From: Longimicrobiales bacterium | GTDB lineage: Bacteria; Gemmatimonadota; Gemmatimonadetes; Longimicrobiales; Gaopeijiaceae | DNA length: 64,000 nt | Assembly: GCA_965198065.1 (NCBI GenBank) | Contig: CBDAON010000003.1 | Location: forward strand, 63,984 to 127,983 | Reading direction: 5' to 3' | Shown here: in pieces, positions 216 to 26,608 of the stretch | Layout: each line of letters opens with the position of its first letter | How positions within the stretch are numbered: position 1 is the first letter of the stretch | The notes under the pieces: model-generated | The model's database searches: none | Seen by the model: the letters and a program-made list of their open reading frames with translations, nothing else | What the model was told of the DNA's origin: nothing | Position numbers and translations under genes: made by a program

Positions 216-468
216 GTGGTGGTCAGACTACGGATAGCCGTGAAGTTGGACCTGGGCGAACCCCGCCGGGTGACCCAGGAACTCGAACGCTTTGGCGTCG
301 AGCACGGATTTGCTCAGGATCTCAGCTTCCGTCTCCAATTGTGCATGGACGAATTGCTGATCAACATCATCTCCTATGGATACGAGGGCATCGCCGCCGA
401 TCCGATCATCACGGTGAACCTCCAGCTCGACGATTCTAAAATCAGAATCCTAATTCGGGACAATGCGG
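216..468 (+). pseudogene. N-terminal half of an RsbW/SpoIIAB-type anti-sigma factor (HATPase_c), truncated
   Basis: LQLCMDELLINIISYGY (N-box) ... IRILIRDNAG (D-box), then similarity stops and the sequence runs into a ParA fragment. Confidence 0.7.
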
Positions 469-550
469 GCGGTGGTCGAGGCGGATCACCTGCCGGGCTA
501 CTCCATAAGCTCAGGACCTTCTTCCGGTTTAGGAAGAGACCAGCATATCC

Positions 551-1027
551 GTGCGGCCTTCCTCAAAAGCAGGAAGCTACCGCGAGCTCCGGAAGTATCT
601 CACGGCCTTCGACTGGATCGTGGTCGATTGCCCGCCTTCGGCCGACTCCCCCATCTCGCGGAGTGCGTTGCTCGTCTCTGACCTGGCGCTCGTCCCCATG
701 ATCCCCTCCCCCCCCGACCTGTGGGCAGGCGTAGCGATCCGGCAAGTCCTGGATGACGTCATGGCAGTCAACGAAACCCTGGTGGCGCGGATCGTTGTGA
801 ACCAGCGTAAGCCACACACCCGCCTGGCTGCGCGTGGCGGAAAGCTTCCCGGTCGCCGATCTGCGTCGCCAGGACCGGAATGCCGTAGCGGGGGAGGAGG
901 TCCCGGGTCCGCGCCGGCCGCGGGGCTCACTGTCGCTGACCTTCCTCGAGCTCGGCCAGCAGCGGCCGAGATTGAGGCGTTCACCGACAAGGTTGTCGCG
1001 ATCATGAACGGAGATCGCGGAGCATGA
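551..1027 (+). pseudogene. parA: ParA/ParF-family ATPase fragment lacking Walker A, degenerate near the C-terminus
   Basis: FDWIVVDCPP (Walker B), ALLVSDLALVPMIPSPPDLW, IVVNQ, AAAEIEAF; no KGGxGKT upstream. Confidence 0.75.
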
Positions 1028-1416
1028 GCGCGGCCAAGGATCCGCTCGATGGGCTGGCCGACTCGCTGGACGCGGAGGAGGAGGCCGTGGGGCGGCGCTT
1101 CCGCGAGGCCGAGCGCTTCACCCAGGGGCTGCCCCCTGCGGGCGCGTCGGAGGAGACGGAGGCTCCGAGCCCGGCGCCGGTGGCGCGATCTGTGCAGAGC
1201 TCGGGCGTCGTCCGTACTCAGTTCAGCTTCCCGGTCGAGGATCACAAGCTCATCGAAACGCTCCAGACACGGGGTCTGCGTCAGGGCTTGAGGCTCACCC
1301 GAAGCCAGATCGTTCGGGCAGGCCTCCGAGCCCTCGACGCCATGACTCCAGGGGAGTTCGGCGAGACCGTGGAGCAGAGCGAGCCCTTGAAGCCAGGGCG
1401 GAAACCGAGCTCGTGA
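1024..1416 (+). CDS. small ParA partner, putative ribbon-helix-helix (ParG-like) DNA-binding protein
   Basis: ATGA overlap with parA; C-terminal VVRTQFSFPVEDHKLI...LTRSQIVRAGLRAL fits an RHH fold. Confidence 0.55.
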   Translation: MSAAKDPLDGLADSLDAEEEAVGRRFREAERFTQGLPPAGASEETEAPSPAPVARSVQSSGVVRTQFSFPVEDHKLIETLQTRGLRQGLRLTRSQIVRAGLRALDAMTPGEFGETVEQSEPLKPGRKPSS

Positions 1417-1687
1417 AGAGCTTCTCAGACGCCAGGTGCCGACGTGGCCAGACTAACCTCTTTCACTCGCGCGTCCCTTGGGGTCCCGCGTGATCTTTCG
1501 GGCCGCCATCGCTTGCCCCTTTCCGTTTCCGGTAACACTTCCATTTCCGCCCTGAACCTCCCGGAACGACCCAGAGAGAGTATGGCAGGAGGGAGACGGC
1601 CGTGGATGCCGCGACGCTAGCGATGCCGAGAAAACCAGCCCCACCAAGCAAGGTGATCCTTCCATCAGCCCTCCAACACTCGCCGGT

Positions 1688-2401
1688 ATGGTAGCCATGC
1701 GCCTCCTGCTCGCTCTTCTGGTATCTCTCGCTGCTGTTGTGCCCGAGTCGGCACGGGCTCAGGATCCAGAGACGGCCCCCCCCTTCGTCGCTGGCGGTCA
1801 CCTGCTCTTTGCAACTCCCACTGGGCCGTTTGCCGAGAATGTGGACTTCGGTTTCGGGCTGGGTGGACACGGACGCTACGTGGTGGATGACGGCGGGATC
1901 CTGAGCCTCCGGCTCGATCTAGGCTTCATCAACTACGGGAACGAGACGATCCGTATCTGTGTCATCCTACCCTGCCGGGTCACCGGGGACCTGACGACCG
2001 ATAACAACATCTTCCTTCTCGGAATCGGACCGGAGATCGGGGGAGGCTCAGATTCCATCCGGCTGTATGCCAACGCCTCCATCGGATTCGCCCATTTTTC
2101 CACGACTTCTTCCGTAAATGGGTCGAATGATGTCGGGAATCCCTTTGCATCGTCTACCAACTTCCAGGATGCCACATTCGCCTGGACGGCAGGGCCCGGC
2201 CTGCAGCTCCGGGTGTGGACAGACGAGCAGGCGTCGGTCTCACTCGATGTGTTCGCCCGATATAACGGGAACGGTGAAGCACGCTACCTCAGGAAGGGAG
2301 ACATCCAGGACCAGCCCGACGGGAGCGTCCTCCTGAATCCGCGGCAAAGCGAGACGAACTTCTGGACGATCGGGCTTGGAGTGTCCGCGAGATGGCGGTG
2401 A
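1688..2401 (+). CDS. outer-membrane beta-barrel protein (about 8 strands)
   Basis: Signal peptide (MRLLLALLVSLAAVVPESARAQ), amphipathic strands, C-terminal WTIGLGVSARWR; loop Cys pair CVILPC. Confidence 0.75.
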   Translation: MVAMRLLLALLVSLAAVVPESARAQDPETAPPFVAGGHLLFATPTGPFAENVDFGFGLGGHGRYVVDDGGILSLRLDLGFINYGNETIRICVILPCRVTGDLTTDNNIFLLGIGPEIGGGSDSIRLYANASIGFAHFSTTSSVNGSNDVGNPFASSTNFQDATFAWTAGPGLQLRVWTDEQASVSLDVFARYNGNGEARYLRKGDIQDQPDGSVLLNPRQSETNFWTIGLGVSARWR

Positions 2402-2532
2402 GGCATGGAACGAGAAACGACGCTTCGGTGTCCCAGCGTTTGCCGTCGAAGCGCCGATCCTGAGGAATAGCTAGGACACGTCAACTGGGATCGGGTAGAT
2501 ACAAGGGAGGTTCACCTGATCCCCCGTGCGGA

Positions 2533-3372
2533 GTGCAAGGCACCCGCCGAGGAGAGCGATCTGTGGAAAAGAACGTTCGGCCCACCTCTGGCCTGGGCTC
2601 TGCAAGGCATCAAATGTTTTTTGTATTATCGACCTTTCTCATGCTAGGCAGTGGCGGTCCCGCGAGCGCGTCACAGCAACGGCCCCGGAGCGCCCTTTTC
2701 GATCGGGCGGGGACTCACGCGAGCGTCTTCGTAGGCTACGCTCGGACAGGCAACCGGATCATTGATATCGACGGTTTTGCGAACTGGGGCAATTCCGGTT
2801 CGATTCTCGACTATGCGGATGCTGGACTTGTGGTAGGCACGCTGGTAGGGAAGAAGTTTGATTTTGGCGACGTACCTCTCAGGCTCGAGGTAGACGCTAC
2901 GTTCGGCAACTTGTCGGCCAATACGGACCGGCTCGATCCAGAGGGTCTGGACGAGACGGCAGAATCGGAGTTTCGAGGGATCACCACGGCCCGTGCAGGT
3001 GTCGAGCAAGCCATCGGTCCTGCAACGGCATTCGCAACCGTCGGTATTGCGGTCGCCGGGATCGCAAATTCTGTAACCGACATTGATTTCAGACAGGGCG
3101 AAATGCCGCGAGTCGACCCCGATGATAGCTTTCGTGACAGCGCTTTGAGCATCGGTGGGGTGATCGGGGTTGGTGTCGAAACCCCACTGGCCGATACCTG
3201 GACGTTGCGACTCGAAGGCTTATATCTGGATTTCGACGGGAAGACCCATTTCGTAAACAGATCCGGCGACAACAGATGTGGACCAAGGAGAAATCGAAGG
3301 CCTTGCTCCTACAATCTTGATAACACTCTCAGTACCGTGCGCTTGGCGATAATTCGTAGATTCGGCGGGTAG
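2533..3372 (+). CDS. Opa/OmpA-like outer-membrane beta-barrel protein (true start possibly ATG 2614)
   Basis: Signal-like FFVLSTFLMLGSGGPASA; LRLEVDATFG, GGVIGVGVETPLADTWTLRLEGLYLDF, terminal VRLAIIRRF; loop CGPRRNRRPC. Confidence 0.75.
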   Translation: MQGTRRGERSVEKNVRPTSGLGSARHQMFFVLSTFLMLGSGGPASASQQRPRSALFDRAGTHASVFVGYARTGNRIIDIDGFANWGNSGSILDYADAGLVVGTLVGKKFDFGDVPLRLEVDATFGNLSANTDRLDPEGLDETAESEFRGITTARAGVEQAIGPATAFATVGIAVAGIANSVTDIDFRQGEMPRVDPDDSFRDSALSIGGVIGVGVETPLADTWTLRLEGLYLDFDGKTHFVNRSGDNRCGPRRNRRPCSYNLDNTLSTVRLAIIRRFGG

Positions 3373-3511
3373 CGGATATCGTCCTGCTCAAGGAATTACG
3401 CCGTCGCAGTGAGAGACTTTCGGCGGGTGATTTCGTTAGTTAGGGGTTCCACATCTACTCCCCGATATTGTGCTCCTGCCCCCAGGACAACGGCTCAGGA
3501 CCGCGCCGTTC

Positions 3512-4839
3512 CCGAGACGCCGGAAGGCTCCTACGGTTCGGGTCTAGTCTAGAAATCAAGCTGGCTGATCATGCCCTGATGGGCCTTGCCCGAATGCCTA
3601 CAGGCGGTCCTCAGCGCCGCGAGGACCTGATGGAGCCTCCTAGCGGCCGTAGTAGCGAGCGACGGCGCCGCGGCCCGTGAGGCGTCCCCGATCCATCGGG
3701 CCGGAGCTCCACGTCTCCCCACGTGAGGGCGGCGGCTTCGATTCTCGCTATAGCATTCGCCAGTGGCGGCGCATACCCCGCGGTCAGGTCTGGCTGTAGC
3801 TAGAAATGATGCTTCATTCCAAGACTGACTCCCACAAAGGAAAAACCGTCGGTCGACATCGTACCGTCCACGGGCTCACTGCCATCGCGCCGCAGATTCG
3901 GCACATGGCTGCGCAACGGATCCCAGACCACGGTACCTGCAAATTCACCCAAGCTCATCCAGCGAGCCCTGAGTCCTACCGACACCGTTTCCGACACCGG
4001 GTAATCGAATCCAGCGAGAATCTGGTAACTGGTCTGTGTATCCCCCATGGTGGCCTGCGCCGAGCTGGACGTGCCGGCTAGATTGCGCGCGATTTGATCG
4101 GCGTTGGGCTGGTCTCGACCCGTGTCTATGGCCACCGGATCCGTGTTTCTGGACCACACGCTCGCGTAGTCTGCATTCGTTCTCCCAATCCCCATACCCA
4201 ACCCCACGAACGGCGTGAAGCCCCCGGCCACGCCAGGCAGGTCCAGGTACACGTTGCCCATCAGGCTCTTCGATTCGACGAGACCCAACCACTCCTGCGC
4301 CAAGAACAGTTCGTCGCTCAGCTTGTCGGCATTGACCCCCTGGGCGGCGAGCACCCCGGACCGCTGGGAGTAGTTGGAGCTCCTCATCACGTACTCTACC
4401 TCTGCCCGCACCATGCCGTGCAACCGGTATCCCATCACAGCGCTCATCGCAACGCCACCGGCTCTATCGAACGGCACACTCCAACTGTCTCCCACGCCAC
4501 GTGCCGCGTCGGTGCAGCCAGGTACGGACGCATATAGCGGGTTGATGAACTCATCGCAGATGCTGGCGCGATCATTGCTGTCACCCGTCATGGTCACCGC
4601 AGACGATAAGAGAGTTCCTAGTTCTGCGCCCACATAGAACCGTCGCTCGCCTTGTGCCAGAGCGGGCGTGGCCATGGGAAAGAGCACGGTACAAGTCACG
4701 ATGAGAGAATACAGACAGCGGCTTCGTATCATGATGTTTTAGTCCCCTGACAAGGTTGTGCTGAAAAACGAAAGTGTTGCAGTCCGTCCCTTCTCTCAGA
4801 CCCCCAACAACACGAGCCATTTGTCCAGATCGCAATTAG
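3512..4839. repeat. 1328-bp direct repeat, copy 1 (copy 2 at 15110-16437)
   Basis: Sequence matches 15110-16437 at offset 11598; all translated ORFs are identical. Confidence 0.95.
3800..4732 (-). CDS. Opa/P44-Msp2-like outer-membrane beta-barrel protein, copy 1
   Basis: Signal peptide, FYVGAELG, RAEVEY, LMGNVYLD, FTPFVGLGMG, YQILAGFDY, terminal VSLGMKHHF. Confidence 0.85.
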   Translation of the reverse strand: MIRSRCLYSLIVTCTVLFPMATPALAQGERRFYVGAELGTLLSSAVTMTGDSNDRASICDEFINPLYASVPGCTDAARGVGDSWSVPFDRAGGVAMSAVMGYRLHGMVRAEVEYVMRSSNYSQRSGVLAAQGVNADKLSDELFLAQEWLGLVESKSLMGNVYLDLPGVAGGFTPFVGLGMGIGRTNADYASVWSRNTDPVAIDTGRDQPNADQIARNLAGTSSSAQATMGDTQTSYQILAGFDYPVSETVSVGLRARWMSLGEFAGTVVWDPLRSHVPNLRRDGSEPVDGTMSTDGFSFVGVSLGMKHHF

Positions 4840-4996
4840 TTGGCGGCGAATTCAGTCCTCAGAATGTCGATATACTGTTGGCCGATCAAGTCCCGGAGCT
4901 CCTGTAAACACGACACGGAACAGGACGACTCATGCGACCTTCGTGTTCTTCGAGGACGCGCGTCTCGGTTTCGACGCGTTCCTGGGCCAGCTCTGG

Positions 4997-6264
4997 TGAC
5001 GTGACCCCCTGAAACGAGACCAGGGCGGATGTTAGGATCCGGGCACTTGGTCCCAGCTAGAGGGAGGTCAGCATGGGCAGGAGGAGGCATACCCCGGAGC
5101 AGATCATCACGGCACTTCGGGAGGCGGAAGTTGCACTAGCGAACGGGAAGACGGTGGGCGAGGTGGGGCGCCAGCTGGGGTCAGCGAGCAGACGTACTAC
5201 CGGTGGCGGAAGGAGTTCGGGGGGATGAAGGTGGACCAGGCACGCCACGTGAAAGAGCTCGAGCAGGAGAACGGGCGCCTGAAGCGAGCGGTGGCGAACC
5301 TGACGCTGGACAAGCTGATCCTGGAGGAAGCGGCGAAGGGAAACTTCTGAGCCCCGAGCGAAGACGCAGGGCGGTGGTGCATGTACGTCAGCAGCTCGGG
5401 GCGTCGGAGAGGAGAGCGTGCCGGGTGCTCGGGCAGCCACGCACGACCCAGCGCCGGGCGAGGAGAGTGGCGAGTGACGAGGGGGCGCTCCGAGGTGATA
5501 TCGTGCGACTCGCGAGTCGATTCGGCCGCTACGGCTAGCGACGCGTCACGGACACGCTCCGCATCGAGGGCTGGGGGGTGAAGCACAAGCGGGTGGAGCG
5601 GATCTGGAGGCAGGAGGGGCTGAAGGTCCCGGAGCGGCAGCCGAAGCGAGGTCGGCTGTGGCTCAACGACGGATCGTGCATCCGGCTGAGGCCGCTGTAT
5701 CGGGGCCACGTCTGGTCGTACGACTTCGTGGCCTCGAGGACGCACGACGGGCGTGCGCTGAAGCTGCTGACAGTGCTGGACGAGCACACGAGGGAGTGCC
5801 TGGCGATCGTGGTGGCTCGCAAGATCCGCTCGCACGACGTGCTCGAGGTGCTGGACGATCTGTTCGTCCGACACGGGCCCTCCCGAGTATCTGAGGTCGG
5901 ACAACGGACCGGAGTTCACCGCGAAGCCCGTGCGGCGGTGGTTGGGGCGCGTGGGCGTCGAGACGCTCTTTATCGAGCCGGGCAGCCCGTGGGAGAACGG
6001 CTACAACGAGAGCTTCAACGGCAAGCTCAGGGACGAGCTGTTGAACGGGGAGATCTTCTGCTCGTTGGCGGAGGCGGCCGTGCTGGTCGAGCAATGGAGG
6101 CGCGAGTACGATACCGTCCGACCCCACAGCGCCTGCGGCGGCTTTCCCCCGGCCCCTGAGGCGATTAAGCCGTCGCCCTGGTTCCTGAGGATGCCCGTCC
6201 TTCACCGCCCTCCACAGGTGCTGGGACTAACATAGGTTGTGGTACCGCTCTTCGGGGCAGGTCA
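4997..6264 (+). mobile_element. IS3-family insertion sequence (element A), inactivated
   Basis: Ends TGACGTGACCCCCTGAAACGAGACCA / TGGTACCGCTCTTCGGGGCAGGTCA; orfA MGRRRHTPEQII from 5073; AAGGGAAAC frameshift site; integrase WSYDF..PGSPWENGYNESFNG; frameshifts and an in-frame TAG at 5536. Confidence 0.92.
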
Positions 6265-6269
6265 AGACG

Positions 6270-6445
6270 CGGCGCGGTCTGCAGCTTCACCCGGCCGGGC
6301 CCAGTAAGCGCCGCCATCCACCCCAGCCCCGAGCGGCGGAGAGTTACGCCGCCTCCGCGGGCAAGGCGGAGCTCGTATTCGGCCGTCGCCTCGAAACACA
6401 CCACCGCGGCTACGGGTGTTTCCAGTTCCTCGCCGTCCGCGAGCT
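6270..6445 (-). pseudogene. C-terminal remnant of an AIM24/TIGR00266-family protein
   Basis: ELADGEEL..VVCFEATAEY....AALTGPGRVKLQT resembles the family's LTGPGxVxLQ terminus. Confidence 0.5.
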
Positions 6446-6989
6446 CGGGGTTCCGACAGTTATCGTAAGTAATCGGGGACCGGCAACCGACTGCCACCGG
6501 TCATGGACATCGAGCTGCTGTTTCTCGACGATCTGCGCTCCGAATTCGAACGGGTGCCCCCGGCCTTGGAGATCGAGCAGTTGCTGTCGGGTGGAGGGGA
6601 GGATGTGAACGGAGCGGAGCTGTTGGGTCGGCTCGCCCAGCGGGCCGCCCGGCATTTGATCCAGCAGGCGTTGTGCGCTGCCGCGCTCCCGGGAGCCACC
6701 GGAGAGCTTCGGGGACTTCGGCCTCGGGGACCTTCGGGGCAGGCGCGACCTTCGGCCCGAAAATGCGATAGGTGCCGGTGCGGGTCTGTTACCATCGACA
6801 GTTGCTCCGACGGTGCTACTTTCGACTTCGACATAGTGTGGGCTCCTCACCCTCGTGGGTGGGTCATCTTGCAAGGACGACCCAGGGTAGCCTGCGCCAT
6901 GTCGCGTTTACTGGAAAACTTTGGACATCGCCCCAGCGGCGATGCGGTGCTAGATCGTGGTCCGCTGTCCACTGAGTCGGGAAGGCTTT

Positions 6990-8921
6990 ATGCATCGTGC
7001 GAGACTGCTTGCTCCAGTGCTCTTGTTCGTCGCCGGGTGCGGCGACGGTGGAAGTCAGACGCCCACCAGCCCTCCCGCACCGCCCACGAACCGGGCGCCG
7101 ACAGCGTCGACCACGATTGCAGGCCAGAGCGTGGAGGAGGGAGCACAGGTGACGGTAGACATCTCCGGGGCGTTTTCCGATCCCGATGGGGACGCCCTCA
7201 GATACGGGGCCGCCTCGGACGCCTCGAGCGTTGCCACGGCGAGCGTCTCCGGAAGCGATCTCAAGGTGATCGGCGAGGCTCCGGGGAGCGCGACCATCAC
7301 GGTGACGGCGACCGATCCCGGCGGCCTCAGCGCCACCCAGACCTTCGAGGTCACCGTCAACAGCGCCAACCGGGCGCCTACGGTGTCGGGTGCGATTCCG
7401 GACCAGGTCTTGGTAGAGAACACGGAGGCACCGGTAGACATTTCCGGGGCCTTCTCCGATCCCGATGGGGACGCCCTCAGATACGGGGCCACGTCGGACG
7501 CCTCAAGCGTTGCCACGGCGAGCGTCTCCGGAAGCGATCTCAAGGTGATCGGCGAGGCTCCGGGGAGCGCGACCATCACGGTGACGGCGACCGATCCCGG
7601 CGGCCTCAGCGCCACCCAGACCTTCGAGGTCACCGTCAACAGCGCCAACCGGGCGCCTACGGTGTCGGGTGCGATTCCGGACCAGGTCTTGGTAGAGAAC
7701 ACGGAGGCACCGGTAGACATTTCCGGGGCCTTCTCCGATCCCGATGGGGACGCCCTCAGATACGGGGCCACGTCGGACGCCTCAAGCGTTGCCACGGCGA
7801 GCGTCTCCGGAAGCGATCTCAAGGTGATCGGCGAGGCTCCGGGGAGCGCGACCATCACGGTGACGGCGACCGATCCCGGCGGCCTCAGCGCCACCCAGAC
7901 CTTCGAGGTCACCGTAGAAGCGGGCAGCGGTGGAGCGGACCTCGACGCCCTTTTTGCCCCGCCCACGGCGGATGAGATCACACAGGTAAAGGAGGAATGG
8001 GATACCCGAACCCCCGAAGTCAGCGGGGTTCGCCCTGAACTGGACTCTGAGGTTCCCGCGGGATTGGGATCCGTCAGGGTCCGGATCCTTTCTCACACCG
8101 TTGGTGGGCTCAGGCATTACGGGGCCGTGGTGACTCCGGTGGGCGCGGAACCCGGCTCGCTTCCCGTTATCCTCTACGCCCACGGCGGGGACGGCGGCGT
8201 GGAGATCGAGGATACGTTCTTGCTGAATCAGATCCTTCAGCTCCAGGGTCTGAGTGCGGCCTTGGTAATACCGTCGTATCGGTCGGAGCCCCTCCGGCTC
8301 GGGGACCAGGTGTTCCTTTCCGAAGGTCCGCCTAGCCCCTGGGACCGGGACGTCGACGATACCATCTCACTCCTTTCCGTCGCACTCGAGCAGGCGCCGG
8401 AGCTCGACGAGGAGAGGGTGGCCATCGTGGGGTTCAGCCGGGGGGGCGGTGTGGGTCTCCTGACGGCTGCGCGCGATCCGAGGATCGACGCTGTTGTCGA
8501 GTTCTTCGGCCCGACGGACCTGTTCGATGAATATGCACGTGAGATCTTCGAGGAGGCCCTCGACGGCGAGCCGCGGGATCTCCCCGGTCTCGATTACCTC
8601 AATGAGATCCTCGTCTTGCCCTGGAAGATGGGTGTTCTCTCCGATGCAGAGGCTCGGCTCGAGCTCGTCCGCCGTTCCGGAGTGTACTTCGTGGATCGGC
8701 TCCCGCCGGTCCAACTACACCACGGGACAGAGGACACGGTCGTGGCCGTCAGCCAGGCCTACCGGTTGATCGAGGCGATGAAGGCGGCGGGAAAGACAGA
8801 TCAGGACTTTGAGCCGTACATCTATGCTGGTGCTGGCCATGACATCACCGCCCTTATAGGGGCAGGGGCTCACACGCGCGCGATCGAGTTCCTTCGTCCC
8901 TTCCTCTTCGAGCTCCCGTAG
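6990..8921 (+). CDS. lipoprotein with three Ig/cadherin-like repeats and a C-terminal alpha/beta serine hydrolase (S9-like)
   Basis: Lipobox LFVAGC; NRAP..FSDPDGD..TVTATDPGG repeats; YAHGG, GFSRGG nucleophile, HHGTED, GAGH triad. Confidence 0.85.
   Translation: MHRARLLAPVLLFVAGCGDGGSQTPTSPPAPPTNRAPTASTTIAGQSVEEGAQVTVDISGAFSDPDGDALRYGAASDASSVATASVSGSDLKVIGEAPGSATITVTATDPGGLSATQTFEVTVNSANRAPTVSGAIPDQVLVENTEAPVDISGAFSDPDGDALRYGATSDASSVATASVSGSDLKVIGEAPGSATITVTATDPGGLSATQTFEVTVNSANRAPTVSGAIPDQVLVENTEAPVDISGAFSDPDGDALRYGATSDASSVATASVSGSDLKVIGEAPGSATITVTATDPGGLSATQTFEVTVEAGSGGADLDALFAPPTADEITQVKEEWDTRTPEVSGVRPELDSEVPAGLGSVRVRILSHTVGGLRHYGAVVTPVGAEPGSLPVILYAHGGDGGVEIEDTFLLNQILQLQGLSAALVIPSYRSEPLRLGDQVFLSEGPPSPWDRDVDDTISLLSVALEQAPELDEERVAIVGFSRGGGVGLLTAARDPRIDAVVEFFGPTDLFDEYAREIFEEALDGEPRDLPGLDYLNEILVLPWKMGVLSDAEARLELVRRSGVYFVDRLPPVQLHHGTEDTVVAVSQAYRLIEAMKAAGKTDQDFEPYIYAGAGHDITALIGAGAHTRAIEFLRPFLFELP
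7089..7915 (+). repeat. three tandem 279-bp (93-aa) intragenic repeats
   Basis: AACCGGGCGCC starts at 7089, 7368 and 7647; units 2 and 3 appear identical, unit 1 differs mainly in its 5' part. Confidence 0.95.
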
Positions 8922-9066
8922 GCCGCATGGATGAGACCAGCAGCGGGTGGCGCCAAGCGCCACTGCTGCAGACGGGCTAGTGGTATCCTCACCCTGGCGC
9001 CAAGGTGCTGGCCGAGTCCACGACCCCGGACCATCGAACCTGAGAGCAGCGCGCCAGGAACACTAG

Positions 9067-9363
9067 TGAACGCCGGCGGCGTGACGATCAGCTACTACGA
9101 GTGGGTACAGAACAACGAGAACGAGCAGTGGGATGAAGACGAACTGAACGGCAAGCTCAAGCGGATCATGACCAGGGCCTTTCAACCACGTCATCGAAAA
9201 GCAGACCGAGATCAATGCCTCCTTGGTGGCATTGGAGACTGAGCGGCAGCGCCTGGGTCGTGGAGACGATCCATTGGACCCGGTCGATCTACGGACTGCA
9301 GCGTTAGTTGTGGCTGTCAAGAGGGTGGCGCGGGTGGTGCTCGATCGAGGGGTCTGGCCGTAG
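9067..9363 (+). pseudogene. gdh: C-terminal fragment of Glu/Leu/Phe/Val dehydrogenase
   Basis: NAGGVTISYYEWVQN..WDEDELNGKL, frameshift, then DLRTAALVVAVKRVARVVLDRGVWP*. Confidence 0.8.
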
Positions 9364-9787
9364 ACGATAGTCCGGAAGCACCAGGCTTTCCAGGTCACCG
9401 CTTCGACGCTCTGAAGGCGGTGAGCGGCGAGTGAGTCAGGAAGTCGTCCCAGTAGGGGGTCGTCCTGCGGACCTCCGGGACCGCCGTCCCTGGGCTATAC
9501 GGCCCCGACTATGGCCCGGTTACGCTCCCACAAGGCTGCTGTCCCGTGTGAGACGCTCCCGTAATGGCACTAATCATAAGCAACCTAGGACCGTCAACCG
9601 CTTGCTGTCGGTCATGGACATCGAACCGCTTGCGGCACGTCACCCGCAACATCGTGGAGCGGATCTCGGTCCAGGTCCGAATCGCCGATGGGCTCGTGGG
9701 CCGCTTCACTCGGGCGAGAGCTCTCAGAGATCCGGAGGGGGAGCCAGGATGTCGTCCACGGTCGCGACAGTCCTTGCCCCGTATTCA

Positions 9788-10411
9788 TCAGAAGCTGAAC
9801 ATCCCCGCGTCTGACTCTGTGAATTGAGCGCCACATGCCTGCCCGGTGAGGGTCGAAGTGAACCCGGATGGGCCGATCTCCGCCTCTATGTCCAGATCCA
9901 TCCGGCAGGATCCGCTCCGACCGTCGTCCGTGGCCCAGCGAACCGTACCATCCACCTCGCCGCTCAAGGCGAACCCAAGGTCGCCCATGATGGACAGTGC
10001 GAGACTTATGGCCAGGTTGGGCGCGCCGTTCAGGGTGAGCGCGAGCCCGGTATCCTCGGGCGTGACCACGCAGTCCGAGTGTATCATGGTCATCGACAGG
10101 GACACGGAAACGTCTTCGTCGCTGTCTGGATCTCCCATGAGCTCGGCCTGTAGGTTGTTCACAGTCACCGTTCCACCCATCAAGCAGGGCGCAGTGAACT
10201 CTTCCTGTCTGAGGCTCTCGGGGTCTAGGATCTCGCCCTCAAGATCCGAGTTCTCGTTGATGACTTCAAATCCCGGGCTCGTCGCCGCCTTCACGAGCGC
10301 GAGCGCCTCCTCCCGGGTCAGTGAGTCTTCGTCGGGCCCCGTCGAGTCGTCACCGCATGCGACCAGGCCGATCGCAGAGCCCAGAACCAACCCCGCCAAA
10401 ACAAGCCGCAT
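9788..10411 (-). CDS. hypothetical Cys-containing lipoprotein
   Basis: GAGGAGG RBS, MRLVLAGLVLGSAIGLVAC lipobox, DDSTGP linker, four further Cys. Confidence 0.75.
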   Translation of the reverse strand: MRLVLAGLVLGSAIGLVACGDDSTGPDEDSLTREEALALVKAATSPGFEVINENSDLEGEILDPESLRQEEFTAPCLMGGTVTVNNLQAELMGDPDSDEDVSVSLSMTMIHSDCVVTPEDTGLALTLNGAPNLAISLALSIMGDLGFALSGEVDGTVRWATDDGRSGSCRMDLDIEAEIGPSGFTSTLTGQACGAQFTESDAGMFSF

Positions 10412-10425
10412 GAAATGCCTCCTCT

Positions 10426-10514
10426 GGTCATATGCCCTTATGACCTTATAGGCAGCGTGCATATCGTCCCTATCATTCCTACCGTCCCTATCGTTCATAT
10501 CGTTTATACCGTTT
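10426..10514. promoter_or_regulatory. inverted repeat GGTCATA-N6-TATGACC plus six degenerate 9-bp tandem repeats upstream of the lipoprotein
   Basis: IR at 10426-10445; units atatcgtcc ctatcattc ctaccgtcc ctatcgttc atatcgttt ataccgttt at 10461-10514. Confidence 0.55.
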
Positions 10515-10581
10515 CCAGTCAATCCGTATGTGCTTACGAGTATTTTACTTAGGTGATCGGCCCGAGCTGTCGTCACGCTGA

Positions 10582-11647
10582 CCTGCCCCCAAAAGCGGTA
10601 CCACCTAGAGTGTTAGTCCAAGCACCTCCTTTTGGCTGGGGGGTGGTCCAAGAAGCAGAGGTAGGTTGAGCAGCTTTGGGTCTGGCCGGATCGCTTCGGG
10701 GGCCGGGGGTCGATAACCCAGAGAGCTGTGCGGTCGATGCGTGTTGTATTCGCGCCGCCACTGCTCGATCAGCACCTTCGCCTCCTCCAGCGAATGGAAG
10801 ATTTCGCGCTTCAGCAGCTCGTTTCGGAGCGTGCCGTTAAAGCTCTCATTGTAGCCGTTCTCCCACGGGCTGCCCGGCTCGATGAACAGCGTCTTCACGC
10901 CTAGCTCACCGAGCCACTGCCGAACCACTCGGGCCGTGAACTCCGGACCGTTGTCGGAGCGAAGATTCGCCGGTGGACCGTGCTCGGCAAACAGCTCGCT
11001 CAGCGTCTGCAGAACATCGTCCGCCTGAAGCCTGCGAGTCACCACGATCGCCAGGCACTCCCGGCTGTACTCATCCAGCACCGTCAGCATCTTGAGCGGC
11101 CGTCCATCATGCGTCCTGCCCCCAAAAGCGGTACCACCTAGAGTGTTAGTCCAAGCACCTCCTTTTGGCTGGGGGGTGGTCCAAGAAGCAGAGGTAGGTT
11201 GAGCAGCTTTGGGTCTGGCCGGATCGCTTCGGGGGCCGGGGGTCGATAACCCAGAGAGCTGTGCGGTCGATGCGTGTTGTATTCGCGCCGCCACTGCTCG
11301 ATCAGCACCTTCGCCTCCTCCAGCGAATGGAAGATTTCGCGCTTCAGCAGCTCGTTTCGGAGCGTGCCGTTAAAGCTCTCATTGTAGCCGTTCTCCCACG
11401 GGCTGCCCGGCTCGATGAACAGCGTCTTCACGCCTAGCTCACCGAGCCACTGCCGAACCACTCGGGCCGTGAACTCCGGACCGTTGTCGGAGCGAAGATT
11501 CGCCGGTGGACCGTGCTCGGCAAACAGCTCGCTCAGCGTCTGCAGAACATCGTCCGCCTGAAGCCTGCGAGTCACCACGATCGCCAGGCACTCCCGGCTG
11601 TACTCATCCAGCACCGTCAGCATCTTGAGCGGCCGTCCATCATGCGT
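10582..11647. repeat. 533-bp exact tandem duplication of the IS3 3' end
   Basis: 10582-11114 matches 11115-11647. Confidence 0.92.
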
Positions 11648-11987
11648 CCGGTCCGCCACGAAGTCATACGCCCATACATGGTGTCGGTACAGGGGCCGCA
11701 GTCGGATACAAGAACCGTCGGTCAGCCACAGCCTTCCCTCGTTTCGGCTGCTTACTTGGCACCTTGAGCCCCTCCTGTCTCCAGATCCGCTCCACCCGCT
11801 TGTGGTTCACGGCCCAGCCCTCCGTCCTCAGCATCCCCGTCACCATCCGGTACCCGTAGCGCCCGAACCTGCGAGCCACCTTCACCACGTCCTCTCTCAG
11901 CGCCTCCTCATCTTCGCTTCGCTTCGGTATCCGACGCTGCGTCGAGCGTGCCTGGCCCAACACCCGGCACGCCTTGCGCTCACTCAC

Positions 11988-12310
11988 GGCGCGTGGGCGT
12001 CGAGACGCTCTTTATCGAGCCGGGCAGCCCGTGGGAGAACGGCTACAACGAGAGCTTCAACGGCAAGCTCAGGGACGAGCTGTTGAACGGGGAGATCTTC
12101 TGCTCGTTGGCGGAGGCGGCCGTGCTGGTCGAGCAATGGAGGCGCGAGTACGATACCGTCCGACCCCACAGCGCCTGCGGCGGCTTTCCCCCGGCCCCTG
12201 AGGCGATTAAGCCGTCGCCCTGGTTCCTGAGGATGCCCGTCCTTCACCGCCCTCCACAGGTGCTGGGACTAACATAGGTTGTGGTACCGCTCTTCGGGGC
12301 AGGTCAAGAC
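11988..12310 (+). mobile_element. partial copy of IS3 element A 3' end
   Basis: Matches 5946-6268 at offset 6042, including the IRR and 4 flanking bases. Confidence 0.9.
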
Positions 12311-12659
12311 CTCCTCGCTGAAAAGCTTCGGACCAGGTCGATCCTAACATTGCACCTGGTCTCGTTTCAGGGGGTCAGGTCACTACCGCGGAAGGGATCG
12401 GTCACACCCGACGGAAGGCTGGGCGGCCTACATCGGGGGCGACGATGGCTGAGAGACGCCGTGTGGGCAGCTGCTTACGGTTGGTTGGCGAATGGCAAAT
12501 GCCGGAGGACCACAGGATGCTGGTGATGACGAGGGGTGGGGTGCGGAGAACAAGTTTCGACAACACCGGGTCTAAGCTTGGCCAAGCCGAAAAAGCACCC
12601 TCGTGGGATCCTCGGGATCTATGGGTCGTGCGATGTCGCGTATTGACCTGCCCCGAAAA

Positions 12660-13604
12660 TCAGAACGCGTATTTCATAACCAGAGTGACACCAATCGAGC
12701 TCAAGTCCTCGGTCTCAATGGTATAGACGACGGCGTTAGTTCCCGAGCCATTGTCAGAGCTATGACTGCGCAACTGATCCCATTCGTTACTGTCACTAAA
12801 CTTGGCGTGCTTGATCCAGCGTCCCTTGACTCCGATAGAAGCGTCGTCGGTCAGCATATAGTCCACTCCCACCATTGCTTGGTAGCCCAATATTGTATCG
12901 TGAAGCGTGTGACTGGCCGTTGTGGTCGTACCAGCGATTCTCTCATGCAGAGCCTGGCGGTCGACCGCTTCGTTGCCTCTGCCGTTGTAGGTAGCTTCGT
13001 CCGCCGTCTTGATGGCGTCAGGGTCTAGGTTTCGCGAAAAGAATCCGGCATAGTCTAGGCCGGCCATGCCGAGACCCACGCCGCCTCCGACATATGGACG
13101 GAGTTGTCCGGAAACCGGCAGGTCATAGTAGATGTTACCGACCAAACTGTTTATGTTGACACTTCCTATGCGTTCCTCCCCGCGGACAAGTTCCTGGTCC
13201 GATTTGTCCTGAACGTCCGCTCCTCCACCACCTAGCACTGAGGTCGCATTGTACTGCATGCCAGACCGAAAATATTCCACTTCAATTCTTGCCCCGATAT
13301 CGGTCTTAAAACCCAGAGCGACGCCGGAGATTATTCCGGTTGAACTACCGAAGCTGTTGATCCAAGTGGACGCTGCGGACGAGCATTCTCCGGGCTCAGT
13401 AATTCCCGGTGGCGAGAAGTGGTTGGCGGGATCCAGGTGCCTGTCGCAGAGAGTTGGAAAATCAGTATCGCTACCTAGAGTACCCAAGGAATTTCCGATC
13501 CCAAGGCCCGACTCAGTACTCACGTATAGCTGTTGGGCCTCCGATACACACGGAAGCATCAATGAGACCAAAAAGCACGAGACAACAGATATGAGCCGAT
13601 TCAT
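12660..13604 (-). CDS. Opa/P44-Msp2-like outer-membrane beta-barrel protein, paralog of 3800-4732
   Basis: Signal peptide, RIEVEY, GNIYYD, RPYVGGGVG, YQAMVGVDY, terminal MKYAF; shared loop motifs SRNxDP and WDxLRSH. Confidence 0.85.
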   Translation of the reverse strand: MNRLISVVSCFLVSLMLPCVSEAQQLYVSTESGLGIGNSLGTLGSDTDFPTLCDRHLDPANHFSPPGITEPGECSSAASTWINSFGSSTGIISGVALGFKTDIGARIEVEYFRSGMQYNATSVLGGGGADVQDKSDQELVRGEERIGSVNINSLVGNIYYDLPVSGQLRPYVGGGVGLGMAGLDYAGFFSRNLDPDAIKTADEATYNGRGNEAVDRQALHERIAGTTTTASHTLHDTILGYQAMVGVDYMLTDDASIGVKGRWIKHAKFSDSNEWDQLRSHSSDNGSGTNAVVYTIETEDLSSIGVTLVMKYAF

Positions 13605-13754
13605 GTCATGCTCCTCTTCTTAATGGACAACATAGAGTCCACACCGTCAAGGCTAGACTCTGACGATATATCCTGACTCTCTCCCTTGTTCTTCGATTGC
13701 CGAAACAGCTCCCCACACGCCCGTCGAGCTCACCTGGATTCCCTTGAGCAGCAA

Positions 13755-13915
13755 CTCGTTTCCCCAGCTCCTGAGCCAGACGTAGCAGGCTCAGCTTCCG
13801 ACGCGCCATCTTCTCCTTCTGGACGGTGGTCATCTTCCCCTCGTGGCTTGAGTGGACTTAGCAACTCTCAAGTAACCACGGCAAGGGCGGTTGGCCACCG
13901 TCCTCTTTCCCCGGC
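13755..13915 (-). mobile_element. IS481-family 5' remnant
   Basis: MTTVQKEKMARRKLSLLRLAQELG is typical of IS481-family transposase N-termini; truncated; boundaries approximate. Confidence 0.65.
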
Positions 13916-13928
13916 CAAACTGTCGCCT

Positions 13929-14141
13929 TCAGCGCCTTGGCGGCGATGTGAGGAGCACCCGCATGCCCGCGCTGCTGATGAAATCGAGACGGCTGAAGTC
14001 GACGACCACGCGCCGCTCTCCGCTGCTAACGTGGTCCATGACGACAGACTCGAACGAGCGCACGTTTCCGCTGTCGAGTCGTCCGACGGGCGACAGCACC
14101 AAGACCTCGTCGTTCCGCTCCTCCGCGACTTCGATATCCAT
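13929..14141 (-). pseudogene. STAS anti-anti-sigma factor, frameshifted and truncated
   Basis: LSPVGRLDS...VVVDFSRLDFISSAGMRVLL; continues as IAAKALKA in a shifted frame before the IS481 remnant. Confidence 0.8.
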
Positions 14142-14174
14142 TCGATGCACCCTCTCGTTGCTACGCCAGCCGCT

Positions 14175-14300
14175 TCACGCTGCGCCTGGTGTGAGATCGT
14201 GTTCCAGTGTCAACCGATTCTTGCCGTCTAGGTACTCGTACTTCATTCGGCCGGCAGACATCGCCGCCTTTCCCATGCAATGAGCCGGACAAGCCTCGGT
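14175..14300 (-). pseudogene. C-terminal remnant of an RsbW-type anti-sigma factor
   Basis: RMKYEYLDGKNRLTLE immediately upstream of the STAS gene. Confidence 0.55.
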
Positions 14301-14360
14301 GCTGCGGAGCGCGGGCGAGGTTCGGGCGCCGCTGCCATTCGAGCCGCCAGACCTCGGCCA

Positions 14361-15105
14361 GGTCAAGTCCCGAGTTGTGTGTAAAAGTGAGAGGAAGCTC
14401 CTCGATGCTTCGGTTAGGCTGCCTTGGCGACCTCCTTCCCTCTCTGCCAACTTAGGTGAGACACGGAACAAGTAAAGAATTAGAGTAGGGCGAAGGCAGA
14501 GAAACCGAGGATGCTGAGACACCGAGAGAGCATGGAAGAGAATAGAATCGCCCCACTAACCTGGGAGGGTAAGCGAAGCGCGGCAGCTGCTCCGGACGCG
14601 GAGGTGGTAGATAAGCCGACGCGCCGACGGTTTAGTCCGTCGTACAAGCTGCGGGTCGTCGAAGAAGCGGACCGGTGCACGGAGCCGGGAGAGGTAGGGC
14701 GACTCCTACGACGGGAGGGCTTGTACTCGTCGCACCTGACGACATGGCGCAAGGCGGTGCGGAGTGGGTCGCTGAGAGCGCTGTCGAAGAGACGAGGTCG
14801 AAAGCCGAGCGAACGGAATCCGCTGGAGGGGAAAGTGCGCAAGCTGGAGCGCGAGAACACTCGCCTGGAGAAGGAACTCGAGAAGGCGCGCCTGATCATC
14901 GACGTCCAGGGAAAAGTTGCAGGGCTGCTGGGATTGAGCCTCGAGGACGGGACGAACTCGTGAAGGCGGCCGAGGCGCTGGCCACGTACGTAGGGGTAAA
15001 GCCCGCGTGCGATGCGCTCAGGGTCGCCCGAGCCACGTTAAGCCCGTCTCAACCCAACAGCGGAAGAATGCCGCCTGATACGTTTACACACCTATTGACC
15101 CAACC
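14361..15105 (+). mobile_element. composite remnant: IS256-like terminal inverted repeats enclosing IS3-type orfA and the start of orfB
   Basis: Left GGTCAAGTCCCGAGTTGTGTGTAAAAG, right TTTACACACCTATTGACCCAACC; orfA 14511-14963 PTRRRFSPSYKLRVVEEAD..LLRREGLYSSHL. Confidence 0.65.
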
Positions 15106-15109
15106 TCCG

Positions 15110-16437
15110 CCGAGACGCCGGAAGGCTCCTACGGTTCGGGTCTAGTCTAGAAATCAAGCTGGCTGATCATGCCCTGATGGGCCTTGCCCGAATGCCTACA
15201 GGCGGTCCTCAGCGCCGCGAGGACCTGATGGAGCCTCCTAGCGGCCGTAGTAGCGAGCGACGGCGCCGCGGCCCGTGAGGCGTCCCCGATCCATCGGGCC
15301 GGAGCTCCACGTCTCCCCACGTGAGGGCGGCGGCTTCGATTCTCGCTATAGCATTCGCCAGTGGCGGCGCATACCCCGCGGTCAGGTCTGGCTGTAGCTA
15401 GAAATGATGCTTCATTCCAAGACTGACTCCCACAAAGGAAAAACCGTCGGTCGACATCGTACCGTCCACGGGCTCACTGCCATCGCGCCGCAGATTCGGC
15501 ACATGGCTGCGCAACGGATCCCAGACCACGGTACCTGCAAATTCACCCAAGCTCATCCAGCGAGCCCTGAGTCCTACCGACACCGTTTCCGACACCGGGT
15601 AATCGAATCCAGCGAGAATCTGGTAACTGGTCTGTGTATCCCCCATGGTGGCCTGCGCCGAGCTGGACGTGCCGGCTAGATTGCGCGCGATTTGATCGGC
15701 GTTGGGCTGGTCTCGACCCGTGTCTATGGCCACCGGATCCGTGTTTCTGGACCACACGCTCGCGTAGTCTGCATTCGTTCTCCCAATCCCCATACCCAAC
15801 CCCACGAACGGCGTGAAGCCCCCGGCCACGCCAGGCAGGTCCAGGTACACGTTGCCCATCAGGCTCTTCGATTCGACGAGACCCAACCACTCCTGCGCCA
15901 AGAACAGTTCGTCGCTCAGCTTGTCGGCATTGACCCCCTGGGCGGCGAGCACCCCGGACCGCTGGGAGTAGTTGGAGCTCCTCATCACGTACTCTACCTC
16001 TGCCCGCACCATGCCGTGCAACCGGTATCCCATCACAGCGCTCATCGCAACGCCACCGGCTCTATCGAACGGCACACTCCAACTGTCTCCCACGCCACGT
16101 GCCGCGTCGGTGCAGCCAGGTACGGACGCATATAGCGGGTTGATGAACTCATCGCAGATGCTGGCGCGATCATTGCTGTCACCCGTCATGGTCACCGCAG
16201 ACGATAAGAGAGTTCCTAGTTCTGCGCCCACATAGAACCGTCGCTCGCCTTGTGCCAGAGCGGGCGTGGCCATGGGAAAGAGCACGGTACAAGTCACGAT
16301 GAGAGAATACAGACAGCGGCTTCGTATCATGATGTTTTAGTCCCCTGACAAGGTTGTGCTGAAAAACGAAAGTGTTGCAGTCCGTCCCTTCTCTCAGACC
16401 CCCAACAACACGAGCCATTTGTCCAGATCGCAATTAG
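15110..16437. repeat. 1328-bp direct repeat, copy 2
   Basis: Matches 3512-4839. Confidence 0.95.
15398..16330 (-). CDS. Opa/P44-Msp2-like outer-membrane beta-barrel protein, copy 2 (identical to copy 1)
   Basis: Translation identical to 3800-4732. Confidence 0.85.
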   Translation of the reverse strand: MIRSRCLYSLIVTCTVLFPMATPALAQGERRFYVGAELGTLLSSAVTMTGDSNDRASICDEFINPLYASVPGCTDAARGVGDSWSVPFDRAGGVAMSAVMGYRLHGMVRAEVEYVMRSSNYSQRSGVLAAQGVNADKLSDELFLAQEWLGLVESKSLMGNVYLDLPGVAGGFTPFVGLGMGIGRTNADYASVWSRNTDPVAIDTGRDQPNADQIARNLAGTSSSAQATMGDTQTSYQILAGFDYPVSETVSVGLRARWMSLGEFAGTVVWDPLRSHVPNLRRDGSEPVDGTMSTDGFSFVGVSLGMKHHF

Positions 16438-16520
16438 GGCCTGTTAACACTATCTGAGAGCCTCGACGATGAGCGCAAAGTGGATGAAGGCCGTGAACAT
16501 CACGTCGAGCTTGTCGCAAG
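16437..16520 (-). mobile_element. IS5-family right-end remnant
   Basis: Minus strand reads DKLDVMFTAFIHFALIVEALR* then TGTTAACAGGCCC and a TAA/TTA target-like site. Confidence 0.7.
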
Positions 16521-16571: not shown

Positions 16572-17210
16572 ATGGCGATCTTCCACGGTGTGAGGACCAA
16601 GACAGCAGTTCTGCTGGCCGGTGTGGTCGGGATCGCGGCCGGGGCCCTGGGCCTCGGACTCGCGCGCCTCGCCGTGCTTCCGCCTCAGGAGTACGTCCAC
16701 TTCCATGCGAACTGGGCCCTCTGGCTGAACGGGGAGCGGGTCGACTTCACGGGGGACGAGTACATGGAGGACGTCGGGCTCTGCATGTCCGCGGATGCGG
16801 AGATCACCGGGCCTGGAAGGGTGCACCTCCACGAGAACAACGCCGACGTCCTGCACGTCCATCACGACGGGGTCACCTGGGGGCATTTTCTCCAGAACCT
16901 CGGCTGGGCGATGGGTCCGGACTGGGTCATGACGGATCGCCAGGAGATTTACCGCGACGGGGAAGGCGCCCGTCTCACGTTCATCCTGAACGGCTTCAGC
17001 GTGCCACCGGTGAACGAGAGGCTGATCCGCCCCGGCGACCGCCTCCTCGCTTCCTTCGGGTCCGAGTCGGTTGAGGAGCTCGTCAGGTACCGGTTCCCGG
17101 AGGTCGCGTCGAACGCCCCGACCTACGACGAGACCTTCGACCCGGCTGGCTGCCAAGGGCAGGAGCCCGAGACCTTTTCCGATCGACTGAGGCGGGCGTT
17201 CTGGCTCTGA
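16572..17210 (+). CDS. membrane-anchored His-rich hypothetical protein
   Basis: N-terminal TM; HFHANWALWLNG, VHLHENNADVLHVHHDGVTWGHF, two Cys. Confidence 0.7.
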   Translation: MAIFHGVRTKTAVLLAGVVGIAAGALGLGLARLAVLPPQEYVHFHANWALWLNGERVDFTGDEYMEDVGLCMSADAEITGPGRVHLHENNADVLHVHHDGVTWGHFLQNLGWAMGPDWVMTDRQEIYRDGEGARLTFILNGFSVPPVNERLIRPGDRLLASFGSESVEELVRYRFPEVASNAPTYDETFDPAGCQGQEPETFSDRLRRAFWL

Positions 17211-26409: not shown

Positions 26410-26608
26410 CCCGAGAGGCCGCGAGATGAGCTGGATGGACGGAGAGATAGACCCTCTCGAGCAGTTCCCTGTCGGCGAGCACCTCCTCCAGTGCGCGTGC
26501 TGTTATCCCCTGCTCCGGTTCGAGAGGGCGTTTCATGAGGCCCTCCCCCGGTTGCCGCAGGACTTCGAGCGGACCCCCTCCGCTCTTCATCCCAAGGAGC
26601 CTGGATGA
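26406..26608 (+). pseudogene. zinc-finger (ZAS) anti-sigma factor with a degenerate N-terminus
   Basis: WMDGE..EHLLQCACC contains HxxxCxxC; ATG 26406 overlapping the sigma stop is out of frame with it. Confidence 0.65.

Follow-up and report, generated by a model that had tools for sequence, protein, structure and literature searches.

Five barrel genes in three families

The 64,000-nucleotide stretch analysed here (the window; G000:C3:63984-127983) belongs to a Longimicrobiales genome of 3.05 Mb, assembled in four contigs and 87.6% complete, and its nearest titled relatives are Longimicrobiales metagenome-assembled genomes (MAGs). Between bases 1688 and 16330 it carries five genes for outer-membrane beta-barrels, A, B, C, D and C2, which an earlier note, made from the sequence alone, had read as a candidate adhesin or variation system of the Opa/Msp2 kind amid insertion sequences (IS). 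Three of them, C, C2 and D, represent an apparently undescribed family, in which a known fold serves as scaffold for a new variant cap, and the chances appear about even that its members are receptors or adhesins of fixed specificity whose ligand belongs to the sponge niche. The cluster itself is ordinary island cargo and matters little. The barrel genes, and the duplication that holds two of them, are these (aa, amino acids; GC3, GC content at third codon positions):

1688..2401, + strand: barrel A, 237 aa, C-x4-C; additional copy of a barrel that is near-universal in Longimicrobiales
2563..3372, + strand: barrel B, about 269 aa, C-x8-C in loop 4; likely GTG start at 2563 (frame from 2533/2563), GC3 0.60; separate family
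3512..4839: first copy of the duplication, with gene C; exact direct repeat
3800..4732, - strand: barrel C, 310 aa, C59-x13-C73, with D60, E141, R195, R274 and H276; type member of the capped family
12660..13604, - strand: barrel D, 314 aa, C53-x20-C74; a divergent C-family member (GC3 0.59) whose protein recurs unchanged in another genome (G252)
15110..16437: second copy of the duplication, between two IS ends
15398..16330, - strand: barrel C2, identical to C

All five frames are open and the Cys spacings are as the earlier note had stated (x4, x8, x13, x20 and x13 in A, B, C, D and C2), every mature chain containing two Cys and no more; the N-termini resemble signal peptides by eye. The four barrel types of the note are better described as four sequences in three families (A; B; C/C2/D): C and D align at 33% identity (E 1e-43), C2 is a 100% identical copy of C, and A and B gave no match to C or to each other (hhalign probabilities 3-16%). 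AlphaFold2 models of B and C, the two barrels that were modelled, are eight-stranded, and D may be taken for a barrel through its identity to C. The Opa/Msp2-like label proved weak, amounting to a common fold superfamily and faint Opacity and Surface_Ag_2 scores. Only C exceeds a Pfam cut-off, with 29.5 bits against the 28.7 of PF13505; B (25.3) and D (25.7) fall below it and A has no Pfam match, while for Surface_Ag_2 (PF01617, cut-off 22) D reaches 21.8 and C 13.9, and D also lies below the Opacity cut-off. The terminal residue is Phe in both C and D and in 98 of the 102 long family frames in the loci; the C-termini of A (RWR) and B (RFGG) are less canonical.

The clustering exceeds chance, in that 4 of the 12 PF13505 matches of the genome lie in this stretch, and a Poisson estimate for four distinct barrel genes within 14.6 kb is about 1e-4 genome-wide. 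The Cys pairs are not specific to the island: in the stretch examined, exactly two Cys occur in 4 of the 8 other PF13505 barrels and in the core paralog of A. The idea of one five-gene module had to be abandoned, as the three families do not co-occur in relatives and the genes travel separately or as another cassette, in which C stands with two lipoprotein genes and a symporter gene (E-F-C-symporter).

Barrel A, an ordinary gene of the lineage, happened to end up in the island. Within the order, 198 of 251 genomes have it, usually once, and each of the three families is represented; this is the single-copy, vertical and widespread pattern that the earlier note had named as contrary to its own proposal. 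C/D and B are patchy, horizontally moved and subject to purifying selection. The core paralog of A, 60% identical, lies at C4:281809, far from any IS; both Cys are retained in 55 of 62 aligned relatives, and 42 of the 120 relatives listed have a JGI source (hand count). Barrel B looks like a second, independent transferred family, with 476 relatives, found in 4 of the 251 Longimicrobiales genomes and in 11 of the 56 genomes in the order of a gammaproteobacterium (G258). Its model (pLDDT 85.9) has Asp-rich loops that are conserved like the strands (0.67 versus 0.64).

The capped C/D family and its spread

The AlphaFold2 model of C (pLDDT 92, pTM 0.83) consists of eight long strands with short helices at the distal ends and a Cys-paired loop 1; the strands, predicted at about 20-24 residues, would rise well above the membrane. 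Its top structural match is the Legionella Dot/Icm porin III (PDB 9NH2, 9nh2_A; Z 20.4, rmsd 4.3 over 201 residues), likewise an extended eight-stranded barrel, which differs from C in sequence (14% identity) and is tied with NspA (Z 19.9); OmpA (17.8), OmpW (16.6), PagL (14.9), CarO (13.4), Opa60 (10.5) and pOmpT (9.1) come below. Foldseek places OmpT and Pla near the top (ranks 4-15), probably owing to the extended barrel. No solved relative was found by sequence in the PDB (best NspA, E 0.057), and the ESM Atlas, searched with the homologues P0036 and P0244, returned generic barrel clusters only. A link to type IV secretion, considered from the 9NH2 match, found no support in the neighbouring genes, among which no type IV secretion genes are conserved across loci.

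With the NspA/OmpA transmembrane domain (PF13505), C shares the predicted eight-stranded barrel, the signal peptide, the terminal Phe and the motifs R-x-E-x-E-Y and N-x-Y-x-D. However, it is about twice as long (284 versus 137-155 residues), has an extended sheet and a helical, Cys-paired cap, retains 7-20% identity and lacks a periplasmic peptidoglycan-binding domain.

A word-seeded search yielded 326 relatives, and 78 sequences were aligned (A1); at E 1e-30 or below, the profile matched 218 clusters (50% identity). Conservation was counted in C, D and 85 full-length sequences (270-345 aa) among 146 new profile matches, a set of 87 with a mean identity of 29%. In this set, C59 is kept in 79 sequences, D60 in 81, C73 in 76, E141 in 80, R195 in 87, R274 in 82 and H276 in 80, and all seven occur together in 63. 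An AGT motif at 219-221 also persists, whereas position 275 is Ser in 60 and Gly in 14, leaving no invariant nucleophile. By the model, the conserved cap residues would sit at the extracellular-side ends of the strands, with Y189, W193 and R195 of strand 5 in lumen-facing parity.

Fusions were seen among P0382, P0390, P0522, P0524, P0077, P0280 and P0293: natural double barrels in the C family, and N-terminal fusions to ankyrin-like (below cut-off), CarboxypepD_reg and PEGA domains in the C and B families. In G252, 3 kb separate D from another divergent barrel with a short Cys-paired loop (L081:11764-12696), whose neighbours include integrase and reverse-transcriptase genes.

GTDB genomes gave 257 relatives. 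The best 79 of these 257 loci are all from MAGs of seven phyla (Gemmatimonadota, Rhodothermota/Bacteroidota, Acidobacteriota, Nitrospirota, Pseudomonadota, Verrucomicrobiota and Binatota), and 78 of them hold a full-length frame. Within Longimicrobiales, 39 of 251 genomes carry the family (38/106 in f1, 0/71 in f2, 0/73 in f3); the counts are 38/201 for Nitrospirales, 23/151 for Rhodothermales and 9/151 for Opitutales, and 0 of 250 for the other genomes of the phylum of G256. As some genomes were possibly reached by two routes, these counts are not additive. JGI metagenomes contributed only 31 loci, from 9 assemblies, and plasmid and phage collections gave no match to C. Tandem complete paralogs occur in relatives: 18 of the 79 loci, among them L008 with its split gene, gave two to four family matches within 6 kb to either side; in the window the genes are not in tandem. 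Small Nitrospirales genomes (L115-L120, G544; L116, G602) hold tandem arrays and up to 11 C-family matches, and they offer a better system than the window for studying the repertoire.

The IS association proposed in the earlier note holds at recent recipients, but only 14 of the 79 family loci have IS neighbours (nine mobile-element queries). IS elements mark the recent recipients, not the family, because the gene is syntenic in Acidobacteriota and Gammaproteobacteria; its synteny in Nitrospirales is stable too. It is likely that the family moved between genera recently: five of five genomes with a gyrA identity of 67-70% carry C at 98-99% identity, in four cases on contigs 0.6-1.7 Mb long; G252 has an identical D and G254 one that is 82% identical; and F and C occur together, at 96-98% protein identity, in genomes of the genera g5, g19 and g24. 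The one same-genus genome (G711, 1.6 Mb) is without the A-B-C DNA. A tree built from 33 selected rows places C within the Rhodothermales sequences, whose monophyly is rejected (p-AU 1.5e-43). No partner gene conserved across phyla emerged from the 79 loci. Two observations on neighbours stand by themselves: the Na+/dicarboxylate-amino-acid symporter at G000:C4:1741108-1742400 has 98-100% protein identity among distant Longimicrobiales (L001-L004, L008, L124), where it belongs to the same cassette, and a gene resembling a sulfatase by eye lies within 6 kb of the barrel at six Rhodothermales loci and one Opitutales locus (L010, L011, L015, L073 and others).

A restriction of the family to sponges is likely, as is a recent acquisition of the island from neighbours in a sponge microbiome. 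Bases 1600-4900 were recovered in 20 listed runs of 11 studies, and a sponge-metagenome RNA contig matches the 3′ end of C at 99+%; contigs from RNA runs of two studies cover C and D, which is not proof of transcription. Runs X6, X16 and X18 cover C and D and not the core genes, a mere hint that other genomes carry them; runs X21-X24 contained hardly any of the sequence words and do not count as evidence. Other bin names among the listed loci presumably come from sponge projects. One locus (L011) is from an Aplysina aerophoba bin, according to PMC5649159, and host-associated Longimicrobiales are described as sponge and coral symbionts in PMC10581226 and PMC11651109. A literature search for the family, for which supplements and most subscription journals were beyond reach, found no description.

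Function of the C/D barrels

Ratios of nonsynonymous to synonymous substitution (dN/dS; Nei-Gojobori counts) were lower in the C cap than in the membrane strands in 5 of 5 groups (0.16/0.23 in the first, which has very few changes, then 0.046/0.154, 0.044/0.152, 0.056/0.157 and 0.125/0.321; ranges 0.04-0.16 versus 0.15-0.32). Across ten frames of the Nitrospirales genome G544, loops share 29% mean identity as against 63% for strands; yet the loops of most paralogs find an 80-98% match in a different genome, the identities of the several loops go together (r 0.65-0.91), and not one of the 70 paralog pairs compared within genomes is a mosaic. Tandem repeats of 1-6-base units, CTCTT-like ones included, are absent from B, C, D, C2 and the 300 bp upstream of them, the sole simple run being a C8 inside A. 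Likewise, no donor cassettes or fragments came to light, tblastn with C and D returning only three full-length genes in this 87.6% complete genome, which represent two sequences. The repertoire consists of stable subtypes. The supposition that selection keeps it is sound as far as purifying selection on C/D goes, but recent arrival accounts for part of the intactness, and at least 5 of the 39 carrier genomes of the order contain interrupted C-family copies.

Phase or antigenic variation in the manner of Opa or Msp2, the reading with which this analysis began, has therefore been rejected, and we consider its chances minimal: despite the shared fold superfamily, the weak Opacity and Surface_Ag_2 scores and the multi-copy tandem arrays of other lineages, there are no repeat switches, donor cassettes or mosaics, C2 does not differ from C, and the cap is under purifying selection. 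The features that define the known systems (CTCTT repeats, loop recombination, about 11 complete Opa copies, an expression site) are set out in PMC4534519. Neisseria Opa (PF02462) resembles C/D in its eight-stranded barrel with long loops, in the full-length multi-copy genes of some genomes and in the adhesin-like role that we infer, but C/D have neither CTCTT signal-peptide repeats nor hypervariable loops or mosaicism, number three copies here versus about 11, and score below the Pfam cut-off. Similarity to Anaplasma Msp2/P44 and the tandem families of Ehrlichia (PF01617) is a weak profile similarity, to which the tandem arrays of complete paralogs in Nitrospirales, Gammaproteobacteria and Opitutales add a resemblance to the Ehrlichia arrangement; C/D differ in having no single expression site with donor pseudogenes, in transfer among seven phyla versus Anaplasmataceae only, and in the invariant polar residues of the cap. 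The surface or host-interaction role in a symbiont that the earlier note had suggested is supported for C/D and probably for B.

For a receptor or adhesin of fixed specificity, the following mechanism can be proposed. With their signal peptide and terminal Phe, C, C2 and D would leave the cytoplasm through Sec and enter the outer membrane through BAM, and a polar network (R109, E111, E113, N160, D164, Q237 and R257) would close the membrane part, as in OmpA and NspA. The distal mouth, putatively lined by D60, E141, R195, R274 and H276 together with the aromatic Y189/W193, would bind a single anionic group, be it carboxylate, sulfate or phosphate, on a glycan, matrix protein or metabolite of the host, and the variable rim would set the specificity of each subtype. 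A genome may then widen its range by collecting subtypes, such as C and D here or those behind the up to 11 matches in Nitrospirales, and not through switching or recombination among them.

Several observations weigh against this receptor reading. That the five polar residues form one pocket is suggested by strand ends and residue parity in the model, and they may instead be structural salt bridges; the His/Asp/Glu/Arg set would be just as much at home in an enzyme. On its extracellular side, C is net acidic (12 K/R versus 24 D/E), unlike the heparin-binding surfaces of OpcA and Ail, which are basic. In the broad family, loops are less conserved than strands overall (0.25 versus 0.39), and A1, gathered via shared short words, favours conserved loops. 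Habitat is established for two records only, the G-handle genomes being without a habitat label; the interrupted copies indicate that the gene is dispensable in recent recipients; one locus has a doubtful Bifidobacteriaceae label, and bins can hold foreign contigs; and the Rhodothermales group of the tree was named after a quick tree had been viewed.

Omptins and PagL carry a conserved extracellular site with His and acidic residues, and C/D could likewise be an outer-membrane enzyme, an eight-stranded analogue in which the acid/base role would fall to H276 together with D60 or E141, and R195/R274 would bind an anionic substrate at the distal mouth, such as a peptide, the head group of a lipid or a host glycan bearing sulfate or sialic acid; paralogs would differ in substrate. 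We regard this, the main rival, as rather unlikely. The near-invariant residues are of the catalytic type and lie outside the membrane part, the extended barrel is shared with the omptins OmpT and Pla and may bring these to their Foldseek ranks, and enzymes that act on sialic acids and glycosaminoglycans are enriched among sponge symbionts, according to PMC8163846. Yet C has eight strands versus ten in omptins and matches pOmpT far less well than the OmpA and NspA types (Z 9.1 versus 17-20), has no sequence match to either group or to any solved structure, and has no conserved cross-phylum neighbour that would use the products. Nor does it have an invariant Ser nucleophile: relative to the His-Ser-Glu of PagL, His276 and Glu141 are each kept in 80 of 87 sequences but Ser275 in only 60, with Gly in 14.

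It is improbable that the barrels are substrate-specific uptake channels like OprG, OmpW and CarO, feeding amino acids or organic acids to inner-membrane transporters. The recent cassette, in which C is followed in the same direction by the Na+/dicarboxylate-amino-acid symporter, the nearby glutamate dehydrogenase remnants and the Z scores of OmpW and CarO speak for such a role; however, the symporter stands beside C in 5 of the 79 loci, all representing one transferred cassette, and is unlinked here (C4:1741108, 98% identity), and the polar set conserved in the membrane strands is typical of OmpA-like barrels, which are closed. Chance cargo of a decaying integrative element, with structural conserved residues and proteins that merely stabilize the membrane or serve as neutral phage receptors, having no host ligand, probably explains why five genes sit together. 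The integrase and VirB4/VirB9-like remnants, the about 74 IS-like intervals, the 98-100% identity elsewhere and the broken copies fit it, as do the ordinary nature of A and the frequency of Cys pairs in the barrels of this genome. As an account of the C/D family we give it a small chance, as it leaves unexplained the restriction to a minority in each of four orders, the stable synteny, the long-kept subtypes and a constraint that is stronger in the cap than in the strands.

How unrelated bacteria recognize sponge tissue and persist in it is the wider question, for which eukaryote-like repeats, cadherins and fibronectin domains are the known candidates. Adhesion genes are enriched, and laterally transferred, among sponge symbionts (PMC8163846); those genes (cadherin, fibronectin III, eukaryote-like repeats) and the C family have cross-phylum lateral spread in common, but the latter encodes an integral outer-membrane barrel, and the term 'outer membrane' appears 0 times in the main text of that paper. 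More tentatively than the receptor reading itself, we suggest that C/D could be a pan-symbiont surface module of marine sponges, in which an invariant Asp/Glu/Arg/Arg/His site on a single barrel scaffold, spread over at least seven phyla and maintained in a fixed set of subtypes that differ in specificity, would recognize or cleave a conserved glycan of the sponge matrix. If true, it would provide a molecular marker and a means to study the attachment of unrelated bacteria to one ancient host, or their feeding on it, and might constitute a new class of outer-membrane enzyme. A single-chain barrel of 31 kDa, with five near-invariant polar residues to mutate and a supply of natural subtypes, makes the question testable in E. 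coli.

The surrounding island

Bases 1 to about 16,500 of the window are the right end of a decaying island, because GC content steps from 55-67% per kb there to about 65-72% across most of the remaining window, integrase and VirB remnants lie upstream, and about 74 merged IS-like intervals are scattered across the genome. The 20 kb upstream contain, all within 13 kb, two integrase genes, CagX/VirB9 and a sub-threshold TraG/VirB4 remnant; integrases, conjugation-gene remnants and atypical composition are thus all present, as in integrative elements. As for an att site, no tRNA gene that could have been the target was found in the window or the 20 kb upstream; scans for Rfam families, tRNAs and promoters gave nothing exceeding chance. 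B and D are among the lowest 1% in GC3. Core genes begin at 16572 and include a putative gyrA-like frame (26605-29163). The other features are:

216..1027, + strand: remnants, the N-terminal half of an anti-sigma-type HATPase_c_2 protein (PF13581 residues 14-86) joined to the C-terminal part of a ParA-like ATPase (AAA_31 profile positions 110-172, below cut-off)
1024..1416, + strand: small intact open reading frame (ORF) behind parA, perhaps partition-partner-like by position; without Pfam/NCBIfam match
4997..6265, + strand: IS3-family element, frameshift near 5878; left boundary of the inverted block
6990..8921, + strand: predicted lipoprotein E, intact, 643 aa, with lipobox, three Ig-like repeats and an S9-like alpha/beta hydrolase
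8931..9242, + strand: glutamate dehydrogenase remnant (PF00208 profile positions 164-217 only)
9788..10411, - strand: predicted lipoprotein F, intact, 207 aa, four further Cys, without Pfam match; back-to-back with C in relatives
10579..12400: IS3-family pieces, truncated and partly duplicated; right boundary of the inverted block
14438..15108, + strand: IS3 orfA remnant (14438-15039), then the end of an IS256-like element (15040-15108)
16438..16515, - strand: end of an IS5-family element; right edge of the island

The surroundings of the barrels, described earlier as mostly broken, are so for the IS elements (frameshifted, truncated or reduced to ends) and the anti-sigma/ParA and glutamate dehydrogenase remnants, but not for the lipoproteins E and F and the ORF at 1024-1416, which are intact. 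The E-F block is inverted here between two IS3 elements, relatives having the order E-F-C-symporter. The exact direct duplication of 1328 bp (3512-4839 = 15110-16437) holds C and C2, its second copy being flanked by the IS256-like and IS5 ends; this duplication rests on the assembly, as none of the listed contigs spanned its left junction.

Further observations concern single components. The three Ig-like repeats of E are near-identical and more numerous in L004, which suggests variation of stalk length by repeat expansion. F is Cys-rich and belongs to no known family, with three paralogs here and weak relatives in 61 of the 251 genomes of the order. One IS3 element contains an exact 535-bp tandem duplication (10582-11649), real or an assembly artefact, and the IS3-family remnant at 14438-15039 is 98-99% identical to copies in G251-G254, implying that IS elements also move between genera. 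In the upstream part of the island, a truncated MmeI-type restriction-modification gene is found at L080:4618-5523.

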